Shown piece by piece: positions 18,247-54,024 of a stretch of DNA of 64,000 nucleotides. The DNA lies in assembly GCA_052327205.1 (NCBI GenBank), contig CM126218.1, forward strand, positions 38,440,001 through 38,504,000, written 5' to 3'. This DNA comes from Somniosus microcephalus. Taxonomy: Eukaryota. Positions within the stretch are counted from its first letter, which is position 1; each line of letters opens with the position of its first letter. The notes beneath the pieces are model-generated. The model searched no databases. It saw only the letters and a program-made list of their open reading frames with translations, and was not told the DNA's origin. Position numbers and translations under genes: made by a program.

Positions 18247-18399
18247 ATTAATGAGTTCAATTTCCCACAGCTTTTTCACAAGATCCATTGATGTATAACC
18301 ATTTGCCAGAAAGGTCTTGATGTAATCATTCAGCTCTAAAGAATCTAACCAGTCTGCCACAGACGTTGGACTGTTCGCATCGTATCCAATAACTTTAAC
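18247..18399 (-). CDS. ANKS1B: ANKS1B SAM2 first exon
   Basis: ttatttcag|GTT ... ATTAAT|gtaagt. 153 nt, phase 0-0. Encodes [51 protein letters not shown]. Confidence 0.95.
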
Positions 18400-20194: not shown

Positions 20195-20569
20195 AATGTT
20201 ATCAGTTGTAGAAGAATATGTTAATATTGTAAGTTCAATTAAGTAATCTCTTCTGTCTAGTCCAAGCTCTTGCACATAACAAGAATCCATTGGGTTTTAC
20301 TACCACATTTCTAAGCAATAAAGAGCCAGCATCTAACTTGATAAACTGAAGTACTGTTGGTTAAAAGACAACCGAAGTCTCTTAATGAAACAGTTCAGTG
20401 AGTTTCTGGAAAGTGAAAACATCGATGGAAACCATTTAAAAATTATTTGTTTTCTTACAACTTTTAATCGCACAATATGATAACTAAAGAGAAAAAAACA
20501 TTTTGCCAGTTTGGACTTGCAAGTGGCTTAAATGTACTTTTGGGCATCTCTCCACACAGAGGTATGTCA

Positions 20570-21946
20570 AACATAGAAGATAGGAGCAGGAGTAGGCCAT
20601 TCGGCCCTTGAGCCTGCTCCGCCATTCAATGTCAGCCTCAAGAAATATATCCAACTCTTTCTTGAATATATTTAATGAACTGGCCTCCACCGCCCTCTGT
20701 GGCAGAGAATTCCACAGGTTCACCACTCTCTGGGTGAAGAAGTTCCTCCTCATTTCAGTCCTAAATGGCTTACCCCTTATCCTTAGACTATGACCCCTGG
20801 TTCGGGACTCCCCGGCCATCATAAACATCCTTCCTGCATCTAGTCTGTCCAGGCCTGACAGAATTTTATAGGTTTCGATGAGATCCCCTCTCAATCTTCT
20901 AAACTCCAGTGAGTATAAGCCCAATCGACACAATCTCTCCTCATACGTCATTCCTGCCATCCCAGGTATCAGCCTGGTGAATCTTCGCTGCACTCCCTCC
21001 ATGGCAAGAATGTCCTTCCTCAGGTAAGGTGACCAAAACTACACACAATACTCAAGGTGCGGTCTCACCAAGGCCCTGTACAACTGTAGCAAGACACCCT
21101 TGTTCCTGTACTCGAACCCTCTTGCTACGAAGGCCAACATACCATTTGCCTTCTTAACCGCCTGCTGCACCTGCATGCTTACCTTCAGCGACTGGTGCAC
21201 AAGAACACACAGGTCTCTTTGCACTTCCCCTTCTCCCAATCTATTGCCATTCAAATAATAATCTGCCTTCCTGTTTTTGCCACCAAAGTGGATAACCTCA
21301 CATTTATCCACATTATAGTGCATTTGCCATGTTTCTGTCCAATCACCCAACCTGTCCAAATCGTACTGGAGTTTCACGACATCCTCCTCACAGCTTACCC
21401 TCCCACCCAGCTTTGTGTCGTCTACAAATTTGGAGATATTACATCCAATTCCCTCGTCCAGATCATTAATATATATTGTGAACAGCTAGGGTCCTAGGAC
21501 CGATCCTTGCGGTACCCCACTAGTCACTGCCTGCCACTCGGAAAACGACCCGTTTATTCCAACTCTTTGCTTTCTGTCCGCCAACCAGTTCTCTATCCAA
21601 GTCAATACCTTGCCCCCAATCCCATGTGCCTTAATTTTGCACGCTAATCTCTTATGTGGGACCTTATCGAAAGCCTTCTGAAAGTCCAAATACACCACAT
21701 CCACTGGTTCTCCCTTATCTATTTTACCAGTTACATCCTCAAAAAATTCCAGTAGATTAGTCAAGCATGATTTACCTTTTGTAAATCCATGTTGACTTTG
21801 TCCGATCCTGTCACTGCTTTCCAAGTGCTCTGCTATTACATCTTTTATAATAGACTCCAGCATTTTCCCCACTACCGATGTCAGGCTTACCGGTCTATAA
21901 TTCCCCGCTTTTTCTCTACCACCTTTTTTGAATAGTGGGGTAACAT
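20570..21946 (-). mobile_element. CR1 LINE, 5'-truncated, same subfamily as 23200-25665
   Basis: RT ORF pieces nearly identical in protein to the + copy. Short deletion in the 3' UTR. Confidence 0.95.
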
Positions 21947-23199
21947 CAAGAATCAAGAATAACATCAGTTGATAAATTCAGGTTATATTCAAAATTAAAT
22001 GTCAGCACTGTTTTATCAGGCAATACATCTAATCTAAATGTTACAGCTGAAGAGTCATCTGCTAATTACTAGTCTTTTGTACAAATGTTACTGTAGCAAG
22101 TAAACTAATTGCCCGTGTTGAATTTATTTTATGAAACACTATTAACCTTTAGATTACCAGAAGATTCTGGGAAATGATGGTCTACCTGGGCCACTAAATC
22201 TTAAACTTCTTACCTTACAAATGACGGCAATGACACAAATACTAACATTATAATAATAAATATACTCAATAGTAGTTTAATACTGCATCATCAATCCTAC
22301 ATTACAAAATAAGCACTTAAAATAATATTTAAAATAATTAAACACTGCTGCTTCTTATTCAATCACCTACAAATGTTGCCTTTTTCTCTTTTTCCCCATT
22401 TTCTTTCCTATTTTTAGAAATGAGCTTTACTCTTACTGTATTTTTCTACCTATTCTCTCCATTCTAAACCTTTTCTCTGAAAATTAACTTTAAACCCAAT
22501 CACGCTCCCTATATGCTCTCACCATCCAATTTGGAGAGGGAACAACCGGATAAAATGTTTCGGATTGGCTGACAACAGACTTTAATTTTTCATCCAATTA
22601 AATGCTAAAAATGTAAAAATTGACCATTTGCATCATAGATGTGACAAGTTCAATATTTAAGTAGGTTCAATCCAGCATCTAGTAAGTAAGAGCTGACAGT
22701 ACTGTACAATTTTTAAAAATCTAAAAAGGTTGGCACTTTCACGGTCATAAAGATGGTGGGAGATGTGGAAATGTCACACTGATGAAACAGAATAGACATT
22801 ATTGAGACACTAAAAGGGGAGCGAACCCTAAATTTCTTTTTAATAGCTGATTTACTTGTCATAATTTAACAAATTTCACCATTAGTCAACAAGTTACAAC
22901 TTGTCTCAAGTTCCTTGAGTCAACATATTTGATCATTACTGCAATTGCAATTATTTTGGTTCCAGACTAGTTTATATAAGCTTATCAACCTTAATACAAA
23001 CAAACTCATCACTGGATACACATCATTAGCATTTCCAGATTGCTGATGATATACAGAACAAACTCTTACAGCGCCTACAACCACTGCTGCGAGGAACTGG
23101 TTTAAGATAAGCAAATCACCTCCCATTATCAAATTAGAAATATATACCTCTTGACAGAGGATATTAAATAACTGATGTCTCCTAATTATACAGCACAAG

Positions 23200-25665
23200 T
23201 GACTTTAATCTACATATAGGTTGGGCTAACCAAATTAGTTACAATACTGTGGAGGAGGAATTCCTGGAGTGTTTACGGGATGGTTTCCTGGACCAATATG
23301 TCGAGGAACCAACCAGAGATCAGGCCATCTTAGACTGGGTATTATGTAATGAGAAAGAATTAATTAGCAATCTTGTTGTACGAGGCCCTTTGGGTCGGAA
23401 CGATCATAATATGATAGAATTCTTCATTAAGATGGAGAATGAAGTAGTTGACTCAGAGACTAGGGTCCTGAATTTAAATAAAGGAAACTATGATGGTCTG
23501 AGGCGCGAGTTGGGTAGGATTGATTGGGGAATGTCACTCAAAGGGTTGACGGTGGATAGGCAATGGCAAGCATTCAAAGACTGCATGGATGAACTACAGA
23601 AATTGTTCATCCCAGTTTGGCATAAAAATAAAACAAAAAAGGTGACTCAACCGTGGCTAACAAGGGAAATTAGGGATAGCATAAGCTCCAAGGAGAGGAC
23701 ATATAAATTGGCCAGAAAAAGCAGTAAACCGGAGGATTCAACAAAGGAGGACAAAGAGATTAATTAAGAAGGGGAAAATAGAATGAGAGAGTAAGCTAGC
23801 AGGGAACATAAAAACTGACTGTAAAAGCTTTTATAGATATGTGAAGAGAAAAAGATTGGTGAAGTCAAACGTAGGTCCCTTGCAGTCAGAATCAGGGGAA
23901 TTTATAATGGGAACAAAGAAATGGCAGACCAATTAAATACATATTTTGGTTCTGTCTTCACAAAGGAGGACACAAATAACCTCCCAGAGATGTCGGGGAA
24001 CATAGGGTCTGATGAAGGGGAGGAACTGAAAGAAATCAGTATTTGTAAGGAAATGGTGTTAAGGAAATTGATGGGACTGAAGGCCGATAAATCCCCAGGG
24101 CCTGATAATCTACATCCTAGGGTACTTAAGGAAGTGGCTCTAGAAATAGTAGATGCATTGCTGATCATCTTCCAACATTCGATGGTATCTGGAACAGTAC
24201 CCATGGATTGGAGGGTAGCTAATGTTACCCCACTATTCAAAAAAGGTGGTAGGGAGAAAACGGGGAATTACAGACCGGTAAGCCTGACATCGGTAGTGGG
24301 GAAAATGCTAGAGTCCATTATAAAGGATGTAATAGCTGAGCACTTGGAAAACAGTGACAGGATCGGACAAAGTCAACATGGATTTACAAAAGGTAAATCG
24401 TGCTTGACTAATCTACTGGAATTTTTTGAGGATGTAACTGGTAAAATAGATAAGGGAGAACCAGTGGATGTGGTGTATTTGGACTTTCAGAAGGCTTTCA
24501 ATAGGGTCCCGCATAAGAGGTTAGCGTGTAAAGTTAAGGCACATGGGATTGGGGGCAAGGTATTGACTTGGATAGAAAACTGGTTGGCAGACAGAAAGCA
24601 AAGAGTTGGAATAAACGGCTCTTTTTCCGAGTGGCAGGCAGTGACTAGTGGGGTACCGCAGGGATCGGTCCTTGGACCCCAGCTATTCACAATATATATC
24701 AATGATCTAGACGAGGGAACTAGATGTAATATCTCCAAATTTGCAGACAACACAAAGCTGGGTGGGCGTGTGTGTTGTGAGGAGGATGCCGAGAAACTCC
24801 AGTATGATTTGGACAGGTTGGGTGATTGGGCAGAAGCATGGCAGATGCAATATAACGTGGATAAATGTGAGGTTATCCACTTTGGTGGCAAAAACAGGAA
24901 GGCAGATTATCTGAATGGCAATAGATTGGGCGAAGGGGAAGTGCAATGAGACCTGGGTGTCCTTGTGCACCAGTCGCTGAAGGTAAGCATGCAGGTGCAG
25001 CAGGCGGTTAAGAAGGCAAATGGTATGTTGGCCTTCGTAGCGAGAGGCTTTGAGTACAGGAACAAGGATGTCTTGCTGCAGTTGTACAGGGCCTTGGTGA
25101 GACCACATCTTGAGTATTGTGTGCAGTTTTGGTCGCCTTATCTGAGGAAGGATGTTCTTGCCATGGAAGGAGTTCAGCGAAGATTCACCAGGCTGATACC
25201 TGGGATGGCAGGAATGACATATGAGGAGAGATTGGGTCGATTGGGCTTGTACTCGCTGGAGTTTAGAAGAATGAGTGGGGATCTCATTGAAACTTATAAA
25301 ATTCTGACAGGACTGGACAGACTAGATGCAGGAAGGATGTTCCCGATGGTCGGGGAGTCCAGAACCAGGGGTCGCAGTCTAAGGATAAAGGGTATGCCAT
25401 TTAGGACAGAAATGAGGAGGAATTTCTTCACCCAGAGAGTGGTGAACCTGTGGAATTCTCTACCACAGAAGGTAGTAGAGGCCAATTCATTAAATATATT
25501 CAAGAAGGAGTTGGATATATTTCTTAAGGCTAAAGGGATCAAGGGGTATAGGGAGAAAGCAGGGACGGGGTACTGAATTTGGATGATCAGCCAGGATCAC
25601 ATTGAATGGCGGAGCAGGCTCGAGGGGCCGAATGGCCTACTCCTGCTCCTATCTTCTATGTTTCT
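23200..25665 (+). mobile_element. CR1 LINE, most of ORF2 plus 3' UTR, inactivated
   Basis: Endonuclease end (ILDWVL, DHNMIEF) and RT (YLDFQKAF, GVPQGSVLGP). Catalytic motif reads FADN rather than FADD, TGA at 24947-24949, CR1-type ttctatgtttcta tail. Confidence 0.95.
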
Positions 25666-26253
25666 AAGTGCATTTAGATACAGATTGGTATCTAAATTGA
25701 ACCTAATCATTGGCAAATGGATTGGTTCAACTCATACACAGTTCTGATATACATATATACATATGCAGTACATGCATTTATAAAACAGCACATTAGAGCA
25801 AAGAACTGTTATCAAATGTGCCTTTATTGACACCAAACTAAAAAGGCAGAATAAACTAGTATTGCCAGCAGGACTTGCTTTAGTCCTTACAACTGTTTCA
25901 TAACTTGTTATTCCATTTCCACCAAAAAGGTCAATGGATGACATAGCACTGAACTTGGCTAATTTCTCAATGTGCTTGTTATGGAGTTGGTATAATGGAC
26001 AAAGTAGTTTCCCACCGAGTGAAGCAGGGAAAAATTTCAGTTGTTTGAATTTTAATGTCAACAAAAAAGTTTTGTTTGTACATGTTCTACATGGATGAGA
26101 TCAGAGAGATTGGAGACTTCACAGAAGCGGTAAAATGAACACAAGAGCAGCATACTCAACTTCAATGGATATTTCCTAAGTGAATTACTTCTCCACATGA
26201 TTTAATATAACTACAGTAGGTGTTCTCTTTTCAGACAGCATCTCTCAACTTAC

Positions 26254-26352
26254 CCGTGGAAGGCCACGGACTGCCTGCAGGATTCGTTGTCTATGTGAAG
26301 AGTTAAGGATGCCGATCTCCAACAAATCCTGGTCTTCCACTACATTGCTTCC
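26254..26352 (-). CDS. ANKS1B: ANKS1B SAM1 second exon
   Basis: ctttctag|GGAAGC ... CCACGG|gtaagt. 99 nt, phase 0-0. Encodes [33 protein letters not shown]. Too short for the ORF track. Confidence 0.95.
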
Positions 26353-26887
26353 CTAGAAAGGGAGGAAAAAAAAGAGAAAAATGATGTAATTCCCACAGTC
26401 CAATTGTGATTGCAACGATCTGATGAACACCGTCACTGTACGCACAGCAGTAGAATTCTACAGTAAACAGCAGGTGAACAGTGGTCATCAAATAGCTACA
26501 CTGTGCCTTGAAACATCGCTGTGCTTGCTGAAAGTTCTTTGAAGTTGACTTGCTTAGATATCAATGGAGTGTGGAATAAAAGAATGAAAGCTATTGTAAA
26601 CAAAATAAAGGAAGCAGAAGGAGCAAACCAGCTTTCCATACACCTTATTGATTCTATGCACAGAAAAGAAGGCACTTTCTTTTACCCTGAACAGTCAGTT
26701 CCTCAAGGTTTACAACTGTGGTACACAGCATGACACAACCATCTAGTGGCACAGCTATTGTGCCATTCTGATAACATATGTTTCTTTTATTAAGATGCAA
26801 TCTCTGCCCCAGAAGGGGCCTTGAACCATATTTTGTCTTCAGAAAAGAAGTGCTATATATTTGGGTACTAATTCAAAAAAAGATAAT

Positions 26888-27680
26888 GGCCCAGTAATTC
26901 CGGGCACAATGCGTGAGTACGGTCGGAGTACTCACGCGTGTGCCCGGACGGGGTACTCACGCGTGTGCCCGGAGGAATTGCCGGTTTTCAGCATGCACAG
27001 CGCATGCGCTGAAAACCGGCATTTCCTGTCCTCTGACCCAAGGGGTTAAGAGGCAGAACGCGCGCGACTGCACAGGCAGCGCGTGCGCAGTGAAATTCCT
27101 TTTTTTCCCCCCCAGAGTTGCGCGTGTGTAAAGGCCTCCGGTCTTTACGCATTGAAAAACCACACGTAAGTACTTAGTTTTTCAGGTAAGTGGGCTTTTA
27201 GTACAATTGAGAATTTTTTTTCCCACAGGTTTGTTATTTTTAAAGAATTTACAGTAAGGTAAGTTTAGTTTTAGCCCCGATTTTTTATATAATTTTTTTT
27301 TTCAAATTTTAAAATTATTGTTTAAAATAGTTTTTCAGAGTTCTTTATTGTTCATTTAAGTAGTGCAATGTTTTTTTAAATTTTCTTTCAGGTTTAAGTA
27401 GTGTTTTGGGGCCAGGAGTTTTCATGAGTTTGACAGCTCTTACTGTCAAACTCATGAATGAGTTTCCCCTCCCCTGATTGGCTGCACAGTGCTCACCTGA
27501 TCCCAGCCGGCACATCGCACTAACTACGCCGCTGGATCAGGTAAGCACATCGCACCGACATCTGAACCGGGCCAGTGACAGGAAATGCAAGCAGGCCCGG
27601 GCTTCAGATGTCGGCGCGCAGGGTGAGTGCACATCGGGGACTTGCACGCGCGGCAAGCTCCCGATCCTAATTTCAGGGCC
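26888..27680. mobile_element. Harbinger-type MITE
   Basis: TIRs GGCCCAGTAATT / AATTTCAGGGCC, 3-bp TSD AAT. Confidence 0.8.
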
Positions 27681-27891
27681 AATGCTGCAGACTAGTCTTT
27701 TCATTTCATGGTGTCATTTCTTACAACAAAACACAGTTTCCAATTTTTCACCAAGTATCATTAAGATAATCCTGAATATTCTGAGGATGTTGATTTTGTG
27801 CAACAACGTTAAAATTTTAAAACCTTCAGAAAATTCAGAGAACAAGAAAAATAGTAAGACAAATGTGAATTGTATTTTAAAGGTCAAATAA

Positions 27892-28148
27892 TGAAAGAAA
27901 GAATTGCATTTATATAGCGCCTTTCAAATCTCAGGACATCCCAAAGCGCTTTACAGCCAATGAAGTACTTTTGAAGTGCAGTCACTTATAATGTGGGAAA
28001 CGTGGCAGCCAATTTGCGCACAGCAAGCTCCTACAAACAGCAATGTGATAATGACCAGATAAGATGTTTTTTTAGGGATGTTAATTGAGGAATAAATATT
28101 GGCTAGGACACGGTAGATAACTCCCCTGTTCTTCTTTGAAATAGTGCT
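27892..28148 (-). mobile_element. DeuSINE 3' half
   Basis: Reverse complement of the same tail (gcatttatatagcgccttt) and core. Confidence 0.75.
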
Positions 28149-28205
28149 GGAGTGTTTGATATCAGGAGAGTCTAATGCTCTTTGATGGTAATTTCTGGGG
28201 AAGCA

Positions 28206-28284
28206 CAGACAGCATATCTCAACTTACCCGTGGAAGGCCACGAACTGCCTGCTGGATTCGTGGTCTATGTGAAGAGTTAAGGAT
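28206..28284 (-). pseudogene. Partial duplicate of the SAM1 second exon (3' 57 nt, donor and intron start)
   Basis: 79 bp matching 26232-26310 with 4 substitutions by direct comparison. Retains CGG|gtaagt and lacks the acceptor half. Confidence 0.93.
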
Positions 28285-28329
28285 TTTCATGTTGATGCAT
28301 TGGCCCCTCCAATGCATCAACATGAAAAT
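28283..28329. repeat. Perfect inverted repeat, 21-bp arms, 5-nt loop
   Basis: ATTTTCATGTTGATGCATTGG-cccct-CCAATGCATCAACATGAAAAT. Confidence 0.95.
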
Positions 28330-28332
28330 AAG

Positions 28333-28780
28333 AGTTAGCTTGGCTCAGTGGTAGTTCTCTTGCCTCTGAGTGAGGCCTGTATGTGCCATCCCTACTCTAG
28401 AAACTCCAGCATTTAAATTAGGTAGATATTTTAGTGCAGTACTGGGTGAGTGCTGCATTGTCAGAGGTGCCGTTTTTCCAATGAGATGTTATATTGAGAC
28501 CGTATGTGCTTGTTCAGGTGAATATAAAGGATCCTGTGGCACTATCTGAAGAAGAGTAGGGGAGTTCTCCTGGTTCATGGCCAACATTTATCCCTCAACC
28601 AACACCATCAAAAAACAGGTTGACTGGCCATTTACCTCACTGCAGTTTGTGGGATCTTCGTGTGTGCAAATTGATTGCTGTATTTCCCTACAAAACAGTA
28701 GTGAGTAGCTGTTAAAATAATGAATTAGTCACAAAGCGCATTGGTAAAAGGTGCTATATAAATGCAATTTATTTCTTGCT
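28333..28780 (+). mobile_element. Full-length tRNA-headed DeuSINE (SacSINE1-like)
   Basis: A-box-like tggctcagtggtag, Deu-like core ggcactat.tgaagaagag.aggggagttctcc, tail gctatataaatgca. Confidence 0.75.
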
Positions 28781-28781
28781 A

Positions 28782-28950
28782 TTCAAGGAGGAGTTGGATA
28801 TATTTGTTAAGGCTAAAGGGATCAAGGGATATGGGGAGAAAGCAGGGACCGGGTACTGAATTTGGATGATCAACCATGATCGCATTGAATGGCGGAGCAG
28901 GCTCGAGGGGTCGAGTGGCCTACTCCTGCTCCTATCTTCTATGTTTCTAT
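28782..28950 (+). mobile_element. CR1 3' end, same subfamily as 25500-25665
   Basis: Near-identical to 25500-25665. Confidence 0.88.
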
Positions 28951-30269
28951 GGCCATACCGCTATTATTGCCATATTGGAAAGTATATATCGGCATAGCAT
29001 GAGATAGCATTGCCAGTTGCTGTGGCTTTCACTGTTCTTCTACTTCTGTGCATGATTGCTTTATATTTTGATCTCTTGTTGAATTATTAGCTACAATAAG
29101 TCAGATATCTTGTGTTAAACCTCTCACACATTATTGAAATCTTTGGAGCGATGTAGCACTGAAAGCCAGATTATTATTTGTTGTGCCTCAAAATATTTCA
29201 ACCTGTGTATAATTTGTTTTGGAAAGTGCTTTGTTCTGCCTAATATCTTTGCTAATAGTTATCTTTTAACACAGTCAGCCACTAAATAATCACTAGTTAG
29301 ATTTTTTCAAATCTGGACATGATTGAATAAACCTATTATACAAAGGATCTGATGGAACAATATTTTTTCAAGAAAATATTGAGATATAATAGATGAAATC
29401 AGAGCTCACATGGTACAGTCGCACTCAACCAAAAAACAATAGAGTGATTAGAACTACACAGGTTGGATATAATTAGAACAGACAACTGATGGGCAGCTGT
29501 TCAATAGATACTTAGAATATTGATTTTAGTAGTCAGTCTTAGTTCCAAGAAACTAGAACTCATGACTTTAGACATGCCAAGCATACTGTAGATAAACAGG
29601 CCTAGTTGGCATTAAGAACATTAATTGACAAGATATATTTAAATAAATTGGACTTTAAATATTTTCATGATTCCTGCAATGGTATACCTCCTTCTTTTGC
29701 TTTGAAGCCAAATAGATATAAAGGAATATTAAAACAGCATTCTTCACCATTGATTACAGCTGTCATTCACAGTGAGTTCAAAAGCATCAGGCTAGTTTTC
29801 CAGAAAGTGGTTTCCATCCAATTTCACCACCCTTTCAGGACCAGGTCACATTGTAAGAGCCTTGTTTGCAGAACCCCAATGAGAAAAACCACACAACTGA
29901 ATTCCCCCTCTCGACTCAGCCAGATACACAATAATTAAGTGCCTCTGTCACTTAAAAGGACTTAGCAATTAATGCTGGTTAAGTAGTTGAACTATATAGA
30001 GGCCTTTCTCCACCCTCATCTTGAACTGACAAACTGTTTGGTCAAGCTTATTTTATGTATTCTTCCAGCCAGCAGTAAACAAATTAAGTGATCCCAGCCA
30101 CAAGCTCCCATAAATAAATATTAATATAAAAGGTTTTTTTTTTAGGAAATGAGACATCATATGTAGGTTACATTAAAAAAATATAAAAGATAATCAAAAT
30201 TTAAGCACATTAAGAAAACTGAAAAATAGCAAGTTTGTCTTTTAAAAAAAAAAGGGGTTAGACAAAATG

Positions 30270-38640: not shown

Positions 38641-41600
38641 TGTAGTGTATGTATTTTGCAGAAGGAACTATATTCTGCAGCCCCTGTATACTGCAGTACC
38701 AGTAGTGACCACCCCTGTATATAAGCCTGTGTAGTAACTTTGCATAGTAGTTCCAGTTTTGTCTCCACTCAGTAAACACCTGTTGTAACCAACTCCTGCA
38801 GTCTGTGTCTCAATTACACACGGACATAATACTGGCGACGAGCAGATCCGAACTTACCTACAGTTCTGCACCACCTCATGGGGATCCATCCCTGAAGCGA
38901 AGTTGTTAGAGGTCGAGGCCAGAAGGAAGAAAGAAAAAAAAAAACAAAAACAGAAGAAACGGGCGTCAACCGTGGGCAGCCGCCTCTGATTCATCGGAGT
39001 TGAAGATTTGCAGGAGAGGCTGTCGAGAGCGGGGCTTGGTTATCCTGTCTATGGTGTTCCAGCTAATCGGGCTGGTGGCAGGTAGTACACTGATCCTTCC
39101 TGGGCTGCGGTGGGCTAGAGCTCGATCGGGTGGCTTTTCAACGGGGCCGAGCAGCGTTGTCGGGAAGAGGAGAGAGAGAGAGAGGGTGGAGCACACAGGG
39201 CGCGGCCGGTGCTACGAAGCCGGGCAGCGTACAGACCCGAGAAGAGGGAGGAAAGTGTCCCGTAGGGTTTGCTCTGACGACGGGAAAATAAAAGAAATTA
39301 GAAGCGCAGAAAGCCGCGAGGAGCTGCAGTTTGCCACGGGGATCGCGGAGAGCGGCGTTAGCAGCAGCACGGGGGGGAAGTGTGCGAAGACCATAGGGCA
39401 TCGCCATCAAGGCATAAAAACGCCAGCAACAGCGCTAGCAGCAGCGGAGAAGACAGAAAGCGCGGGAGGCACCATCTTAGATTTCCAAGATGACGAAGAC
39501 TGGCAATATCACTGCCTTCGATAATGCAATAGAAGACTGGACCACGTATGTGGAAAGAGTCGAAGTATATTGCAAGGCAAACGAAGTAGCCGGAGAAAAA
39601 GGCATCGGTACTACTAAACTTAATGGGTGCAAGAACGTACGGCCCATTGCGGAACCTGATCACTCCAGCCAAACCGATGGCGAAGAGTTTTAACGAAATT
39701 GTTGATATCCTACAGGAACACCTAAATCCTACACCGCTGCTGATAGCAGAAAGATTTAAATTCCACAAGAGAAATCAGCATAAAGATGAGAGCAATGCTG
39801 ATTACCTTACGGAACTACGCAAGCTATCAAAGCACTGCCAGTTCGGAGCAGGACTGGCAGATACCCTACGGGACAAATTTGTCTGTGGACTCCTGAGTGA
39901 AGGAACCCAGAAGAGGTTACTCTCAGAGAAAGAGCTGACGCTAGATAAGGCTTTCAGCGTGGCAGTATCGTACGAAGCAGCAGCAAGGGGAGCTGCGGAA
40001 ATACAGCAAAAGCCACAGGAATACGGCACCCATGAAATGACATGGGGATTTGAAAAATGTTATCGCTGCGGCAGAACAACCCATGACCAGAAGGACTGCT
40101 GGTCCAAGGACAAAATATGCAGGCAATGTGGAAAGATGGGACACATTGCACGAGTTTGCAGGTCTGGGAAGAAGACTAACGACAACAAAAAGGCTACTAA
40201 GGAACAGTACAGGAAAGTACAAAAGATGACGGACAGTAGTTCCGAAGACCAGAAGAGCGATAGTGAATCCGGGAACAAGAGACTAAGCTGTCTCAAACTT
40301 CACAACGTAATCGCAAAAGAGGATCACCGAACCATTTGGGTCACCCTCACGATAGCAGGGTCCCAAGTCAAAATGGAATTGGATACAGGATCAGCCCTGA
40401 CCGTCATGAATCGACGAGACTACGAGCGGCTATTCTCACACATACCCTTGAAAGAGACATCCATTGTCTTGAAGACGTATACGGGGCAGAAAGTATACCC
40501 CAGAGGGAAAAAAGGGTGCCTGTCGAATACAACGGCAAGGAAATACAGAAATTGTATCTGTACATACTGCAAGATGGTGGACCACCGTTATTGGGACGTG
40601 AATGGATCAGAAAGATAAGTTTAGACTGGCACTCCATTCAGGCACTGACTGTGGCTGGTAAAAAGGATGACGACGTCACACCTGGACGATTGTCAAAAAT
40701 CTTAGCTAACGCCAGAGGTATTTCAACAAGAACTGGGAACTCTTAAAGGCATAACCGCCTCGATAAAAATAGAAGAGAATGCAATTCCCAAGTTTTTCAA
40801 AGCTAGACCGGTACCGTATGCAATTCGCCCAGCCGTCGAGGCAGAGCTGGAGAATCTGGAGAATGCAGGCGTGTTATCTAAGGTAGACTGGAGCGAGTGG
40901 GCGACACCCATCGTTCCTGTCATGAAGAAAACGTTAAACAATAAGTCTGAGGAGCCAAGGAAGGTTCACATCTGTGGGGACTTCAAGGTGACGGTGAACC
41001 CAGTCCTTCACACAGTACAGTATCCTCTCCCGAGGATAGAAGATATCTTCGCCTCACTATCTGGAGGGAAGCGTTTTACAAAAATTGACCTAGCACAAGC
41101 ATATTTGCAGATGGAGGTTGAAGAATCCTCTAGGAAGTATCTCACGATAAACACTCACAAAGGTCTTTACCAGTATAATCGACTGGTCTTCGGAGTAGCA
41201 TCAGCTCCGGCGATATGGCAAAGAGCGATGGAACAAGTCCTGCAAGGGATTCCGGGGACTCAGTGTTACTTGGACGACATCCTAGTGACAGGTGAAGATG
41301 ACAGTGAACACCTTGCCAACCTAGAGCAGGTGCTCACTAGACTAAGAGAACATGGGCTACGAGCCAATCGCCCCAAGTGCGAGTTTTTTAAGAAACAGAT
41401 ATCGTATTGTGGCCACGTGATTGATGAAGAGGGGTTACATAAGTCCCCTGACAAAATTGAAGCGGTAGTTAAGGCTCCAGCGCCTGAAAATGTGTCGCAA
41501 CTGAGGTCATTCCTTGGATTGGTGAATTACTACCATAAGTTTTTGCCGAATTTGTCCACAATTCTGCACCCACTGAACGCCCTGCTACAAACTGGAGTAG

Positions 41601-43733
41601 CATGGAAATGGAGCGATGAATGTAAGCGGGCCTTTCAGAAGAGTAAAGACCTAATCACTTCAAGAGAAGTATTGGCTCACTACAACCCATCACTGCCGAT
41701 AAGACTGGCGTGTGATGCGTCTTCCTACGGCATTGGAGCGGTACTGTCACATAAATTCCTTGATGGTTCAGAGAGGCCGATAGCTTTTGCGTCACGCTCG
41801 TTAACTTCAGCCGAGCGTAACTACGCCCAGATTGACAGAGAGGCCCTCAGCCTGGTGTGGGGGGGTGAAGAAGTTCAATCACTACCTGCACGGTCAGAAA
41901 TTTACTCTACTAACTGATCATCAACCTCTTGTCTCCATTTTCAACCCTCAGAAGGGCGTCCCGATAATGATAGCACAACGGCTACAGAGGTGGTCCCTTT
42001 TCCGAGGGGCACACCAATATGACATCGCGTACAAAGGAACTAAACAGCATGGGAATGCTGATGGATTGTCGCGCCTACCGTTGCCGACGGTGGAAGAAGC
42101 AACTGCAGTGGATCCTGTGGAGATATTCCACTCGACCATAGTCCAATGTCTACCTGTGACGAATGCAAACATAGAAAAGGAAACACGAAATGACCCGACA
42201 CTCTCCAGGGTCTATGATTTAACGGTGAAGGGATGGCCAGCACATGGCGAACCACTGCTGCCAGCATTCTCGCCGAGAAGAGAACAGCTGTCAGTGTGCA
42301 GAGGAATCTTGATGTGTGGATCCAGAGTAGTAATTCCACCCAAATTGAAGGATAGAGTGCTCAATGAGCTTCATGAGGGTCATCTGGGAGGGGTAAAAAT
42401 AAAGAACTTAGCCAGAGCGTTTGTGTGGTGGCTGGGAATCGATAGAGAAATCGAAGAGATGACCAAGAGCTGTACAGGATGCCAGAAGGTCCAAAACGCC
42501 CCACCACAAGCCCCTCTACATCCATGGGAGTGGCCCTCATCTCCATGGCAAAGGGTGCACATTGATTTTGCTGGTCCATTTATGGACTCGATGTTTTTAA
42601 TTGCGGTGGATGCACATTCAAAGTGGCCAGAGGTAATAAAAATGTCCTCAACCACCACAGAAAAAACTATCACAGTCTTACGAACCATATTCGCCAGAAA
42701 TGGGCTGCCTGAACAGATTTGCTCCGACAATGGACCACAGTTTGTGTCTGAAGAGTTCCGGAGGTTCTTAAAGAACAATGGTGTTAAGCATTACACATCC
42801 GCCCCATATCATCCAGCCACCAATGGATTGGCTGAGAGGTTCGTTCAAACATTCAAGAAGGCTATCAAGGCAATGTGTAATGAAGACATACCCCTACAAC
42901 ACAAGGTGGATAACTTCTTGTTTGCCTACCGGAATGCGACACATGCGGTTACCAACCAAACTCCAGCCATGATGTTCTTCAATCGAAGACTACGATGCCG
43001 CTTGGATTTGGTTAAGCCAAACATCAGAAGTGATGTGGAGAACAGGCAGTTTCAGAATATGAATGAAAGGCCGACCAGGAGTTTTAAGATAGGTCAACCA
43101 GTTTTGGCCCAGGACTACCGCACAGAGAAATGGCAGCCAAGAACGATCTGCACACGGCAAGGACCTCTAATGTATACCGTGGACGTTGGAGAGAGCATTG
43201 TAAGACGCCATGCTGACCAGATTCTAGAGTCACTGGAAAACGTCAATTCCACACCACGATCCGATACACCTGGTGATGAAACCGAAGTACCAATTGCATC
43301 TACCTCAGAATCGGTGATATTGGAAGCAGACGAACCAAACAACGACGTTGATTCCGAATCAACTTTGCCAGAAGAACCTGATACCCCAAAGAGGCGTTAT
43401 CCAGACAGAATCAGGAAGCCTCCTCAAAGACTGAACTTATAATTGCTTAACTTCAGCTAATGTATATAGCAACTGTAATTGTAAATATGTTATTTAATTA
43501 TTAATCGAATGTTATGTACTGTTTAGCTAAAAGGGGAGGAATTGTAGTGTATGTACTTTGCAGAAGGAACTATATTCTGCAGCCCCTGTATACTGCAGTA
43601 CCAGTAGTGACCACCCCTGTATATAAGCCTGTGTAGTAACTTTGCATAGTAGTTCCAATTTTGTCTCCACTCAGTAAACACCTGTTGTAACCAACTCCTG
43701 CAGTCCGTGTCTCAATTACACACGGACATAATA
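38641..43733 (+). mobile_element. Full-length Ty3/Gypsy (Mag-like) LTR retrotransposon
   Basis: 191-bp LTRs at 38641-38831 and 43543-43733 (3 mismatches). PBS TGGCGACGAG at 38833-38842, PPT AAAAGGGGAGGA at 43529-43540, 5-bp TSD CTAAT/CTTAT. Domain order gag-PR-RT-RH-IN. Confidence 0.97.
39490..43442 (+). pseudogene. Frameshifted Gypsy gag-pol polyprotein
   Basis: Two CCHC knuckles, protease LDTGS, RT YLDD, RNase H LACDAS, integrase HHCC zinc finger and core (HIDFAGP, SDNGPQF, NGLAERF). Broken by about 4 frameshifts near 39600, 40510, 40715 and 41860. Confidence 0.93.
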
Positions 43734-53823: not shown

Positions 53824-53930
53824 CATGAACTGGATGTTGTCAAATCCGTTTGCCAGCAGGTGGTTCTCATACTGGGGGAGTCCTATGCTCTCCAGCCACC
53901 GTCCCACAGTCTGAAATACAACTCTGGGTC
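53824..53930 (-). CDS. ANKS1B: ANKS1B SAM1 first exon (long-isoform acceptor)
   Basis: cctcttacag|GACCC ... TTCATG|gtaagc. 107 nt, phase 1 to 0. Encodes PRVVFQTVGRWLESIGLPQYENHLLANGFDNIQFM. Confidence 0.95.
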
Positions 53931-54024
53931 CTGTAAGAGGTTGAAGGGGAAGCCGCTTCAGTAGTGACATGCCATCAATCCGGTAATAGGGGCATTCCGA
54001 GGTTGAGAGGTGGCATTGCCACAT
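53824..54024 (-). CDS. ANKS1B: First coding exon of short AIDA-1 isoform (5' extension of the SAM1 exon)
   Basis: ATG at 54024 gives MWQCHLSTSECPYYRIDGMSLLKRLPLQPLTGPR, in frame with SAM1. It matches the recalled human short-isoform N-terminus MMWQCHLSAQDYRYYPVDGYSLLKRFPLHPLTGPR. Confidence 0.88.

Follow-up and report, generated by a model that had tools for sequence, protein, structure and literature searches.

How did the end of a coding exon, joined to a perfect fold-back hairpin, come to lie in an intron of its own gene, and does it do anything there? The question is raised by positions 28206–28329 of the 64-kb window, the whole stretch of DNA that was analyzed. The source is a 99-nt coding exon of an ANKS1B-like gene (26254–26352, minus strand, phase 0/0), ANKS1B being a synaptic scaffold gene. 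Its 33 residues form the second half of the first SAM domain and are most like the first SAM domain of ANKS1B, with 2kiv_A ANKS1B as the top phmmer match (E 3.3e-13, 50.3 bits versus 38.6 for ANKS1A). The source exon itself is intact, with an acceptor preceded by a full pyrimidine tract and the donor CGG|GTAAGT. The previous exon lies at 53824–53990 on the minus strand (donor after 53824; 53990 is not a mapped 5' end), and the next exon, on the same strand at 18247–18399, belongs to the second SAM domain. The copied fragment is located in the 27,471-nt intron that runs from the previous exon (last base 53824) to the source exon (first base 26352), 1.9 kb before the true acceptor.

Self-comparison of the window reproduced what a first-pass annotation of this DNA had described, a 79-bp copy of 26232–26310 about 2 kb away in the same orientation, with four substitutions of which two are non-synonymous (Q>P, L>Q). 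The copy occupies 28206–28284 and its template 26232–26310, both on the plus strand; the alignment is ungapped, and the start-to-start distance from 26232 to 28206 is 1974 bp. The template comprises 57 nt from the 3' end of the exon together with its donor and 22 nt of the following intron, and the copy accordingly holds 57 nt of exon and, as had been noted, intron sequence (22 nt), while the source acceptor is not included. In this genome (A), one substitution, at 28216, falls in the intron part; of the three in the exon part, that at 28243 is synonymous (Val), and those at 28253 (L>Q) and 28262 (Q>P) change the residue.

The abutting inverted repeat was likewise confirmed, with a 2-nt overlap between the end of the copy and the left arm. 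It is a perfect fold-back at 28283–28329 with 21-bp arms (28283–28303 and 28309–28329) and a loop of 5 nt, in which the left arm would be the insert and the right arm its template. This is the longest perfect hairpin of the window; about 0.016 perfect hairpins of such arm length are expected at random per genome, and the 151-nt strand holding it has a z of −4.6. The arm 20-mer has one forward and one reverse exact match in the whole 6.45-Gb genome, both at the hairpin itself, and the three genome matches (3/3) of the 196-bp stretch around the element are the stretch itself, the exon and its own hairpin, in a search that skips common words. Membership of a known repeat family, which the first-pass annotation had named as a finding that would overturn its reading, is ruled out by this single-copy state of the arm and of the 196-bp stretch. 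A microRNA precursor was also considered and rejected, the scores being below the gathering values (mir-196, 25.4 bits versus 55.4; mir-5697, 24.4 versus 50).

At the left junction of the copy we found a probable third templated piece. The 14 bp at 28192–28205 (plus strand) match, reversed, the acceptor junction of the same ANKS1B-like exon (26346–26359, minus strand) at 13 of 14 positions, with the lone mismatch on the A of the acceptor AG; this template lies 36 bp from the end of the 79-bp template. When the match is anchored at the junction and sought in the 529 bp round the template, only 4 of 2005 control regions and 3 of 3000 random anchors score as high (P ~0.002); in a 264-kb search its 22 bits fall under those of shuffled sequences (23–28). 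Because the piece was spotted post hoc and is significant in the junction-anchored local test only, we grade it as probable and no higher. Further left, 28149–28191 is a unique spacer, presumably native flank: no template for it stood above shuffles, either in 264 kb or locally, and one of its 23-mers is single-copy in the genome at up to 2 mismatches.

The element occupies 183 unique bases between two head-to-head SINEs of one tRNA-derived family, which, like the 14-bp piece, add to the earlier description. We used a background sample of 1.064 Mb, comprising this region and four unselected 200-kb blocks. The left SINE (27895–28148, minus strand) is 5'-truncated and has 43 matches of at least 150 nt in the sample (median identity 80%), with alignments stopping near 28148. 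The right SINE (28332–28769, plus strand) is full-length, starts 2–3 nt after the hairpin, and has 42 matches of at least 150 nt (median 72%), the 5' ends of other copies being in register here. The two are 69% alike over 259 bp, and their tails give a 23-bp inverted repeat at 27902/28769. They presumably belong to the SacSINE1/DeuSINE group, a likeness from which we take the organism to be a cartilaginous fish. The SacSINE1 family is described in PMC5499810. The arrangement raises the question of whether the head-to-head pair made the site fragile. Directly after the right SINE tail, 28780–28956 is a 177-bp end fragment of the LINE at 23186–25673, 93% alike and very high in copy number in four runs compared.

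Six of 22 available sequence runs were compared with the locus, and the segment was recovered from organisms other than this one (B, C and D). A contig of B spans 28119–28475, the whole element, with 1 difference; a contig of D spans 28120–28462, again the whole element, with 12 differences and no gaps; and overlapping contigs of C together cover 28171–28467, copy and hairpin included. In C and D, no difference is listed within 28192–28205. Contigs of a further organism, E, fall on repeats only, none on the unique parts of the locus. Among B, C and D, all carriers, no allele lacking the element was found. The data for B, C and D come from three studies (P1, P5 and P3), of which P1 may be the window's own source and the other two are independent. 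An assembly artefact, the other explanation that the first-pass annotation had held against itself, is thereby ruled out, since contigs of three other organisms carry copy and hairpin. Because relatives carry it, the segment is real and older than the split of lineages whose flanks differ from this genome by 4.2% (D) and 2.7% (C). At the epaulette-shark mutation rate given in the cited part of PMC10587355 (7e-10 per generation, interval 1.4–14.1e-10), the flank divergence would, by loose extrapolation, correspond to some 30 million generations.

The distance between template and copy was likely shorter at the origin. A contig of C joins 26878 directly to 27681, without the intervening repeat of about 800 bp, and a contig of D also leaves the stretch at 26878. 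Because this repeat is absent in C, we estimate an original distance of ~1.2 kb (about 1170 bp without 26879–27680). The repeat, at 26879–27680, is high-copy and has internal hairpins at 26973–27027, 27421–27458 and 27551–27618.

What kind of event could produce such a structure? Three templates whose orientation alternates speak for repair synthesis of DNA with several switches, of the kind known as MMBIR-type complex templated insertion, and since the exon-derived 14- and 79-bp pieces run opposite ways, both DNA strands would have been needed. We propose that copy, fold-back and the likely 14-bp reversed piece probably go back to one repair event in the germline, during which a DNA polymerase changed templates several times, and that they are a neutral remnant of it. 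The pieces, their orientations, their single-copy state, their presence in relatives and their neutral level of divergence are observed; a single event, the order of the pieces, a DNA template and a lack of function are inferred. In the proposed course, synthesis of the plus strand would leave the chromosome after about 28191, read 14 nt at the acceptor end of the exon in reverse (26359 to 26346), switch strand and copy 79 nt forwards (26232 to 26310). It would then jump to the right flank on the 2-nt microhomology AT found at the switch between copy and arm (3 nt with the exon allele of organism C), copy 21 nt of that flank backwards (28329 to 28309) and rejoin at 28304. The resulting insert would be a chain of reversed 14, forward 79 and reversed 21 nt.

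A chance adjacency of copy and hairpin has a probability of ~0.0005, which favors one event and, with the probable third piece, strengthens the earlier proposal of a repair or template-switch scar. Taken singly, the ingredients turn up about once to a few times per Mb: the background sample holds 3 perfect hairpins with arms of at least 21 bp, that at 28283–28329 among them, and 7 local two-copy segments of 40–400 bp, this one included, of which two resemble terminal-repeat pairs and for which the repeat filter saw the 1.064-Mb sample only. In none of the 6 other two-copy segments of the sample does a hairpin arm longer than 8 bp stand at an end. Among 12 other hairpins with arms of at least 15 bp, one is flanked by 28-nt matches that belong to a longer palindrome of its own, and another has a match of 21 nt in its flank.

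Serial nearby templates with at least one reversed define complex MMBIR-type insertions, and such a series is present here, the 79-bp direct and 21-bp reversed pieces being certain. According to the cited part of PMC8421209, complex multi-template insertions are common in the human germline (33 of 103 curated calls in one person and 26 of 99 in another). The class 'complex' of the templated insertions described there (MMB-TI) shares with the element several short nearby templates, reversed then forward, and germline inheritance; joins in that class have 1–3 nt of microhomology, and the switch between copy and arm has 2 nt here. The element differs in being old, fixed across species and templated in one part by a coding exon more than 1 kb off, and there is here no reference allele to define the junctions. 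For polymerase theta, inserts are mostly <25 bp and templated within 10–20 bp of the break, with about 3% from distant sites, and reiterated switching has been described, as far as the cited parts of PMC5068794 and PMC11541566 go. The fold-back, a 21-nt reverse-complement copy of the flank primed by 2–3 nt of microhomology, resembles the inserts in these sources, whereas a 79-nt piece from more than 1 kb away is atypical. Thus, of the earlier attribution to templated insertion with snap-back synthesis by polymerase theta or template switching, the scar and the template switch stand, while theta with its usual reach (a template within about 20 bp, an insert mostly <25 bp) accounts for the fold-back alone, the 79-nt piece from 1974 bp away being out of range. 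The enzyme may have been an MMBIR polymerase or polymerase theta. The element is real and old, likely neutral, and ordinary in kind, probably one more complex templated insertion; a literature search gave no account of this locus or of such an anatomy among the matches listed, supplements excluded.

Three other origins were weighed against a single multi-switch event. In the first of them, equally neutral today, a ~1.2-kb tandem duplication starting at 26232, with the 14-bp piece as junction insert, would have duplicated the whole exon, and a later deletion with a fold-back insert would have removed the half of the duplicate that held the acceptor, along with what remained of the unit. Each junction would then be ordinary end-joining, for which a fold-back template within 20 bp of the breakpoint is typical in the cited part of PMC11541566; the 14-bp template would lie 114–127 bp from the duplication start, and loss of the acceptor would presumably have silenced an in-frame duplication of 33 residues. 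Two events are required at one spot, however, and a self-search of 27800–28900 gave no further direct copy of unique intron sequence; we regard this course as unlikely. More doubtful still, with little probability left to it, is a patch templated by RNA, in which reverse-transcribed host pre-mRNA mended a break (a class 2 templated sequence insertion), with the LINE machinery behind the neighboring SINEs as a possible agent. The copy has the orientation of the gene and of the truncated SINE, and the flanks show neither target-site duplication nor poly(A). In the cited part of PMC5110952, intronic templates are known, and the class 2 polymorphisms resemble the element in patch size (reported range 73–414 bp), intact donor, and lack of target-site duplication and poly(A); their donors are distant and argued to be RNA, whereas here the template is local and the pieces lie in both orientations. 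The element thus has the intact donor and the plain flanks of that class, and lacks the distant donor and the single RNA-derived patch. The 14-bp piece is opposite in orientation, and the SINEs are far more diverged from their family (72–80% identity) than the copy from the exon. Because the pieces run in opposite orientations, we favor a DNA template.

A Helitron has a 3' hairpin followed by CTRR, and dispersed copies; since the hairpin here adjoins a gene fragment, we also considered that the exon end was captured and carried by a Helitron or a cut-and-paste element. Yet the element is a single copy beside its own template, neither strand has a CTRR within 30 nt of the hairpin, the arm has a GC content of 33%, and both 23-bp inverted ends, at 27902 and at 28769, belong to SINE tails. 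With a single-copy arm and spacer and no CTRR near the hairpin, we rejected Helitron or Pack-TIR cargo as highly improbable, the least likely of the origins considered.

Taking the element as the remnant of one multi-switch event, we asked how it has since evolved. Its divergence is at the level of the flanks, with 7/138 versus 76/1791 differences in D (5.1% vs 4.2%, Fisher p 0.66) and 3/138 versus 45/1649 in C (2.2% vs 2.7%, p 1.0), both being weak tests on 138 bp. Over all lineages, the exon part shows 7 changes, and 5 of these alter the residue (L>Q, Q>P, R>G, H>Y, V>I), the random expectation for non-synonymous changes being 71%; one of the two synonymous changes (28243) may have arisen in the true exon instead. 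Neutral decay, at first suggested from the two non-synonymous substitutions, is therefore supported across three lineages, by divergence at flank level and a non-synonymous share at random level, and nothing points to selection on the element in this low-power test over 138 bp. The hairpin is identical in B and C, and in D the pairs 28290:28322 and 28291:28321 are broken by three changes, none compensating; over the tree, 3 arm changes are observed and 2.3 expected, and perfection in A, B and C has a probability of 0.32. A ninth difference in the D contig was counted without placement and could belong to the final bases of the right arm. The arm differences of D with an assigned position (28290, 28291, 28322) are all on two adjacent base pairs, and one makes a CpG; this clustering could stem from a single multi-base event or from an ancestral CpG. 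As a neutral scar, the element matters little: it clearly records multi-template repair in the germline of a slowly evolving vertebrate, and it is a marker that the clade shares.

The copied donor deserves separate treatment, since the first-pass annotation had pointed out an intact CGG|gtaagt upstream of the true exon that could act as a decoy or seed a new exon. The motif CGG|GTAAGT is indeed present at 28222–28230 (minus strand; last exon-like base 28228). Splice sites were scored by consensus matches and pyrimidine fraction, and the motif has 8/9 consensus matches, the same as the true donor. It is unchanged in B, C and D, a constancy that neutral drift gives with probability 0.61, and donors with at least 8/9 matches number 9 among the 1681 GT sites of the host intron, the copied one included. 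There are 35 AGs in 28240–28800 as partner acceptors; that with the best tract, 28545, lies in the antisense SINE, has a pyrimidine fraction of 0.88, reached by about 4–6% of the 1699 AGs in the intron, and would delimit a 318-nt exon with stops. Such an exon, used as a poison or decoy exon tuning ANKS1B output, has in its favor the strength of the tract at 28545, the equality of copied and true donor, the constancy of the motif in four organisms, and the existence of decoy exons in large introns, as described in the cited part of PMC6097662. There, the decoy exons of SF3B1, OGT and ARGLU1 have in common with the copy an intronic 5' splice site in a large intron; they are highly conserved, whereas here there is no excess conservation, no strong acceptor close by and no junction evidence among the nine RNA reads placed. 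Moreover, 8 further donors of the same intron match the consensus equally or better, the stop-free in-frame options of 21, 24 and 111 nt have tracts of 0.41–0.47, and a 37-nt option loses its AG (28266) in organism D.

RNA reads bear on the gene rather than on the copy. Nine reads were placed from two runs, chosen by species label and sampled at 24% and 31%, and all are of the true-exon type: 7 from the first run, on 28226–28261 with 90–95% likeness, fit the true exon alleles and the first two letters of the next exon, and 2 from the second have the exon's T at 28262. The ANKS1B-like gene is thus transcribed from the minus strand at the locus. In these shallow data, none of the 9 reads falls on the copy's flanks or the hairpin; the 7 and 2 reads may represent one molecule each, a depth too low to weigh use of the donor, and as the comparison stretch excluded the true acceptor, a 28228>26352 joint would appear only as a loose end. 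The intact donor stands, and its role as a decoy or exon seed finds no support, the site being one of 9 such donors with weak acceptors nearby and no excess conservation; we consider its use with 28545 improbable. Were the donor used, a repair accident and an antisense SINE would have made a regulatory exon in ANKS1B, a use for which there is no support here.

The element is not fully inert: it has outlasted a flank divergence of ~4%, and in organism C copy and exon seem to have been made alike again. There, a 45-bp contig is at double depth (37.4 versus 13.8–18) and contigs break in register at 26296/28270 and 26282/28256, from which it follows that exon and copy of C are identical over 26267–26311 (45 bp). 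By the counts of differences, C has one allele of the pair at 28243 and one of that at 28253; more probably, these are a synonymous A at exon position 26269 and loss of the copy's T at 28253, a T that is present in both A/B and D. The intron of C also has the copy's A at 26242 (paired with 28216), where A/B and D have the base C, as does the copy of D. The exon alleles of D at 26269, 26279 and 26311 are outside this comparison. With D as outgroup, two repeated changes in opposite directions are required, each with a probability of about 0.005 by mutation; a root on the C branch requires one (28216 in D, about 0.011) together with several-fold rate differences. Some repeat change is required under any root.

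It is possible, though we would sooner doubt than assert it, that the ~80-bp scar is a gene-conversion partner of the conserved coding exon 1–2 kb away, as judged from an unrooted tree and from contigs of a single individual of each organism. Were D the outgroup, sequence would have moved both ways in the C lineage, over a length well under the 200 bp or so needed for efficient exchange; the copy as a whole is also well below that length, and conversion below roughly 200 bp is slow yet possible according to the cited part of PMC3924818. A parallel is the duplicate exon 26 of salamander Nav1.4 (PMC8476164, in the part cited), likewise a partial-gene duplicate that persists across species with substitutions common to it and the original; that duplicate is whole, expressed and open, whereas here 57 nt of exon without an acceptor are decaying. 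If conversion is true, this would be a natural case of a coding exon exchanging sequence with an intronic copy of ~80 bp, and tiny intronic scars could feed mutations into exons.

Some further features of the region were observed in passing. Open frames inspected by eye suggest two oppositely oriented LINE fragments, presumably CR1-like, at 20487–21977 and 23186–25573. Elsewhere in the host intron, at 39590–43439, open frames of 342, 403 and 545 residues read, by eye, like gag/pol pieces of a Gypsy-type LTR retrotransposon. A perfect hairpin with 45-bp arms and a loop of 6, in repeat-derived sequence, is found 14.8 kb left of the window (C17:38425201-38425296), and a near-perfect palindrome of ~117 bp at C10:30090997-30091113, unique-looking in the 1.064-Mb sample, is another likely fold-back scar.
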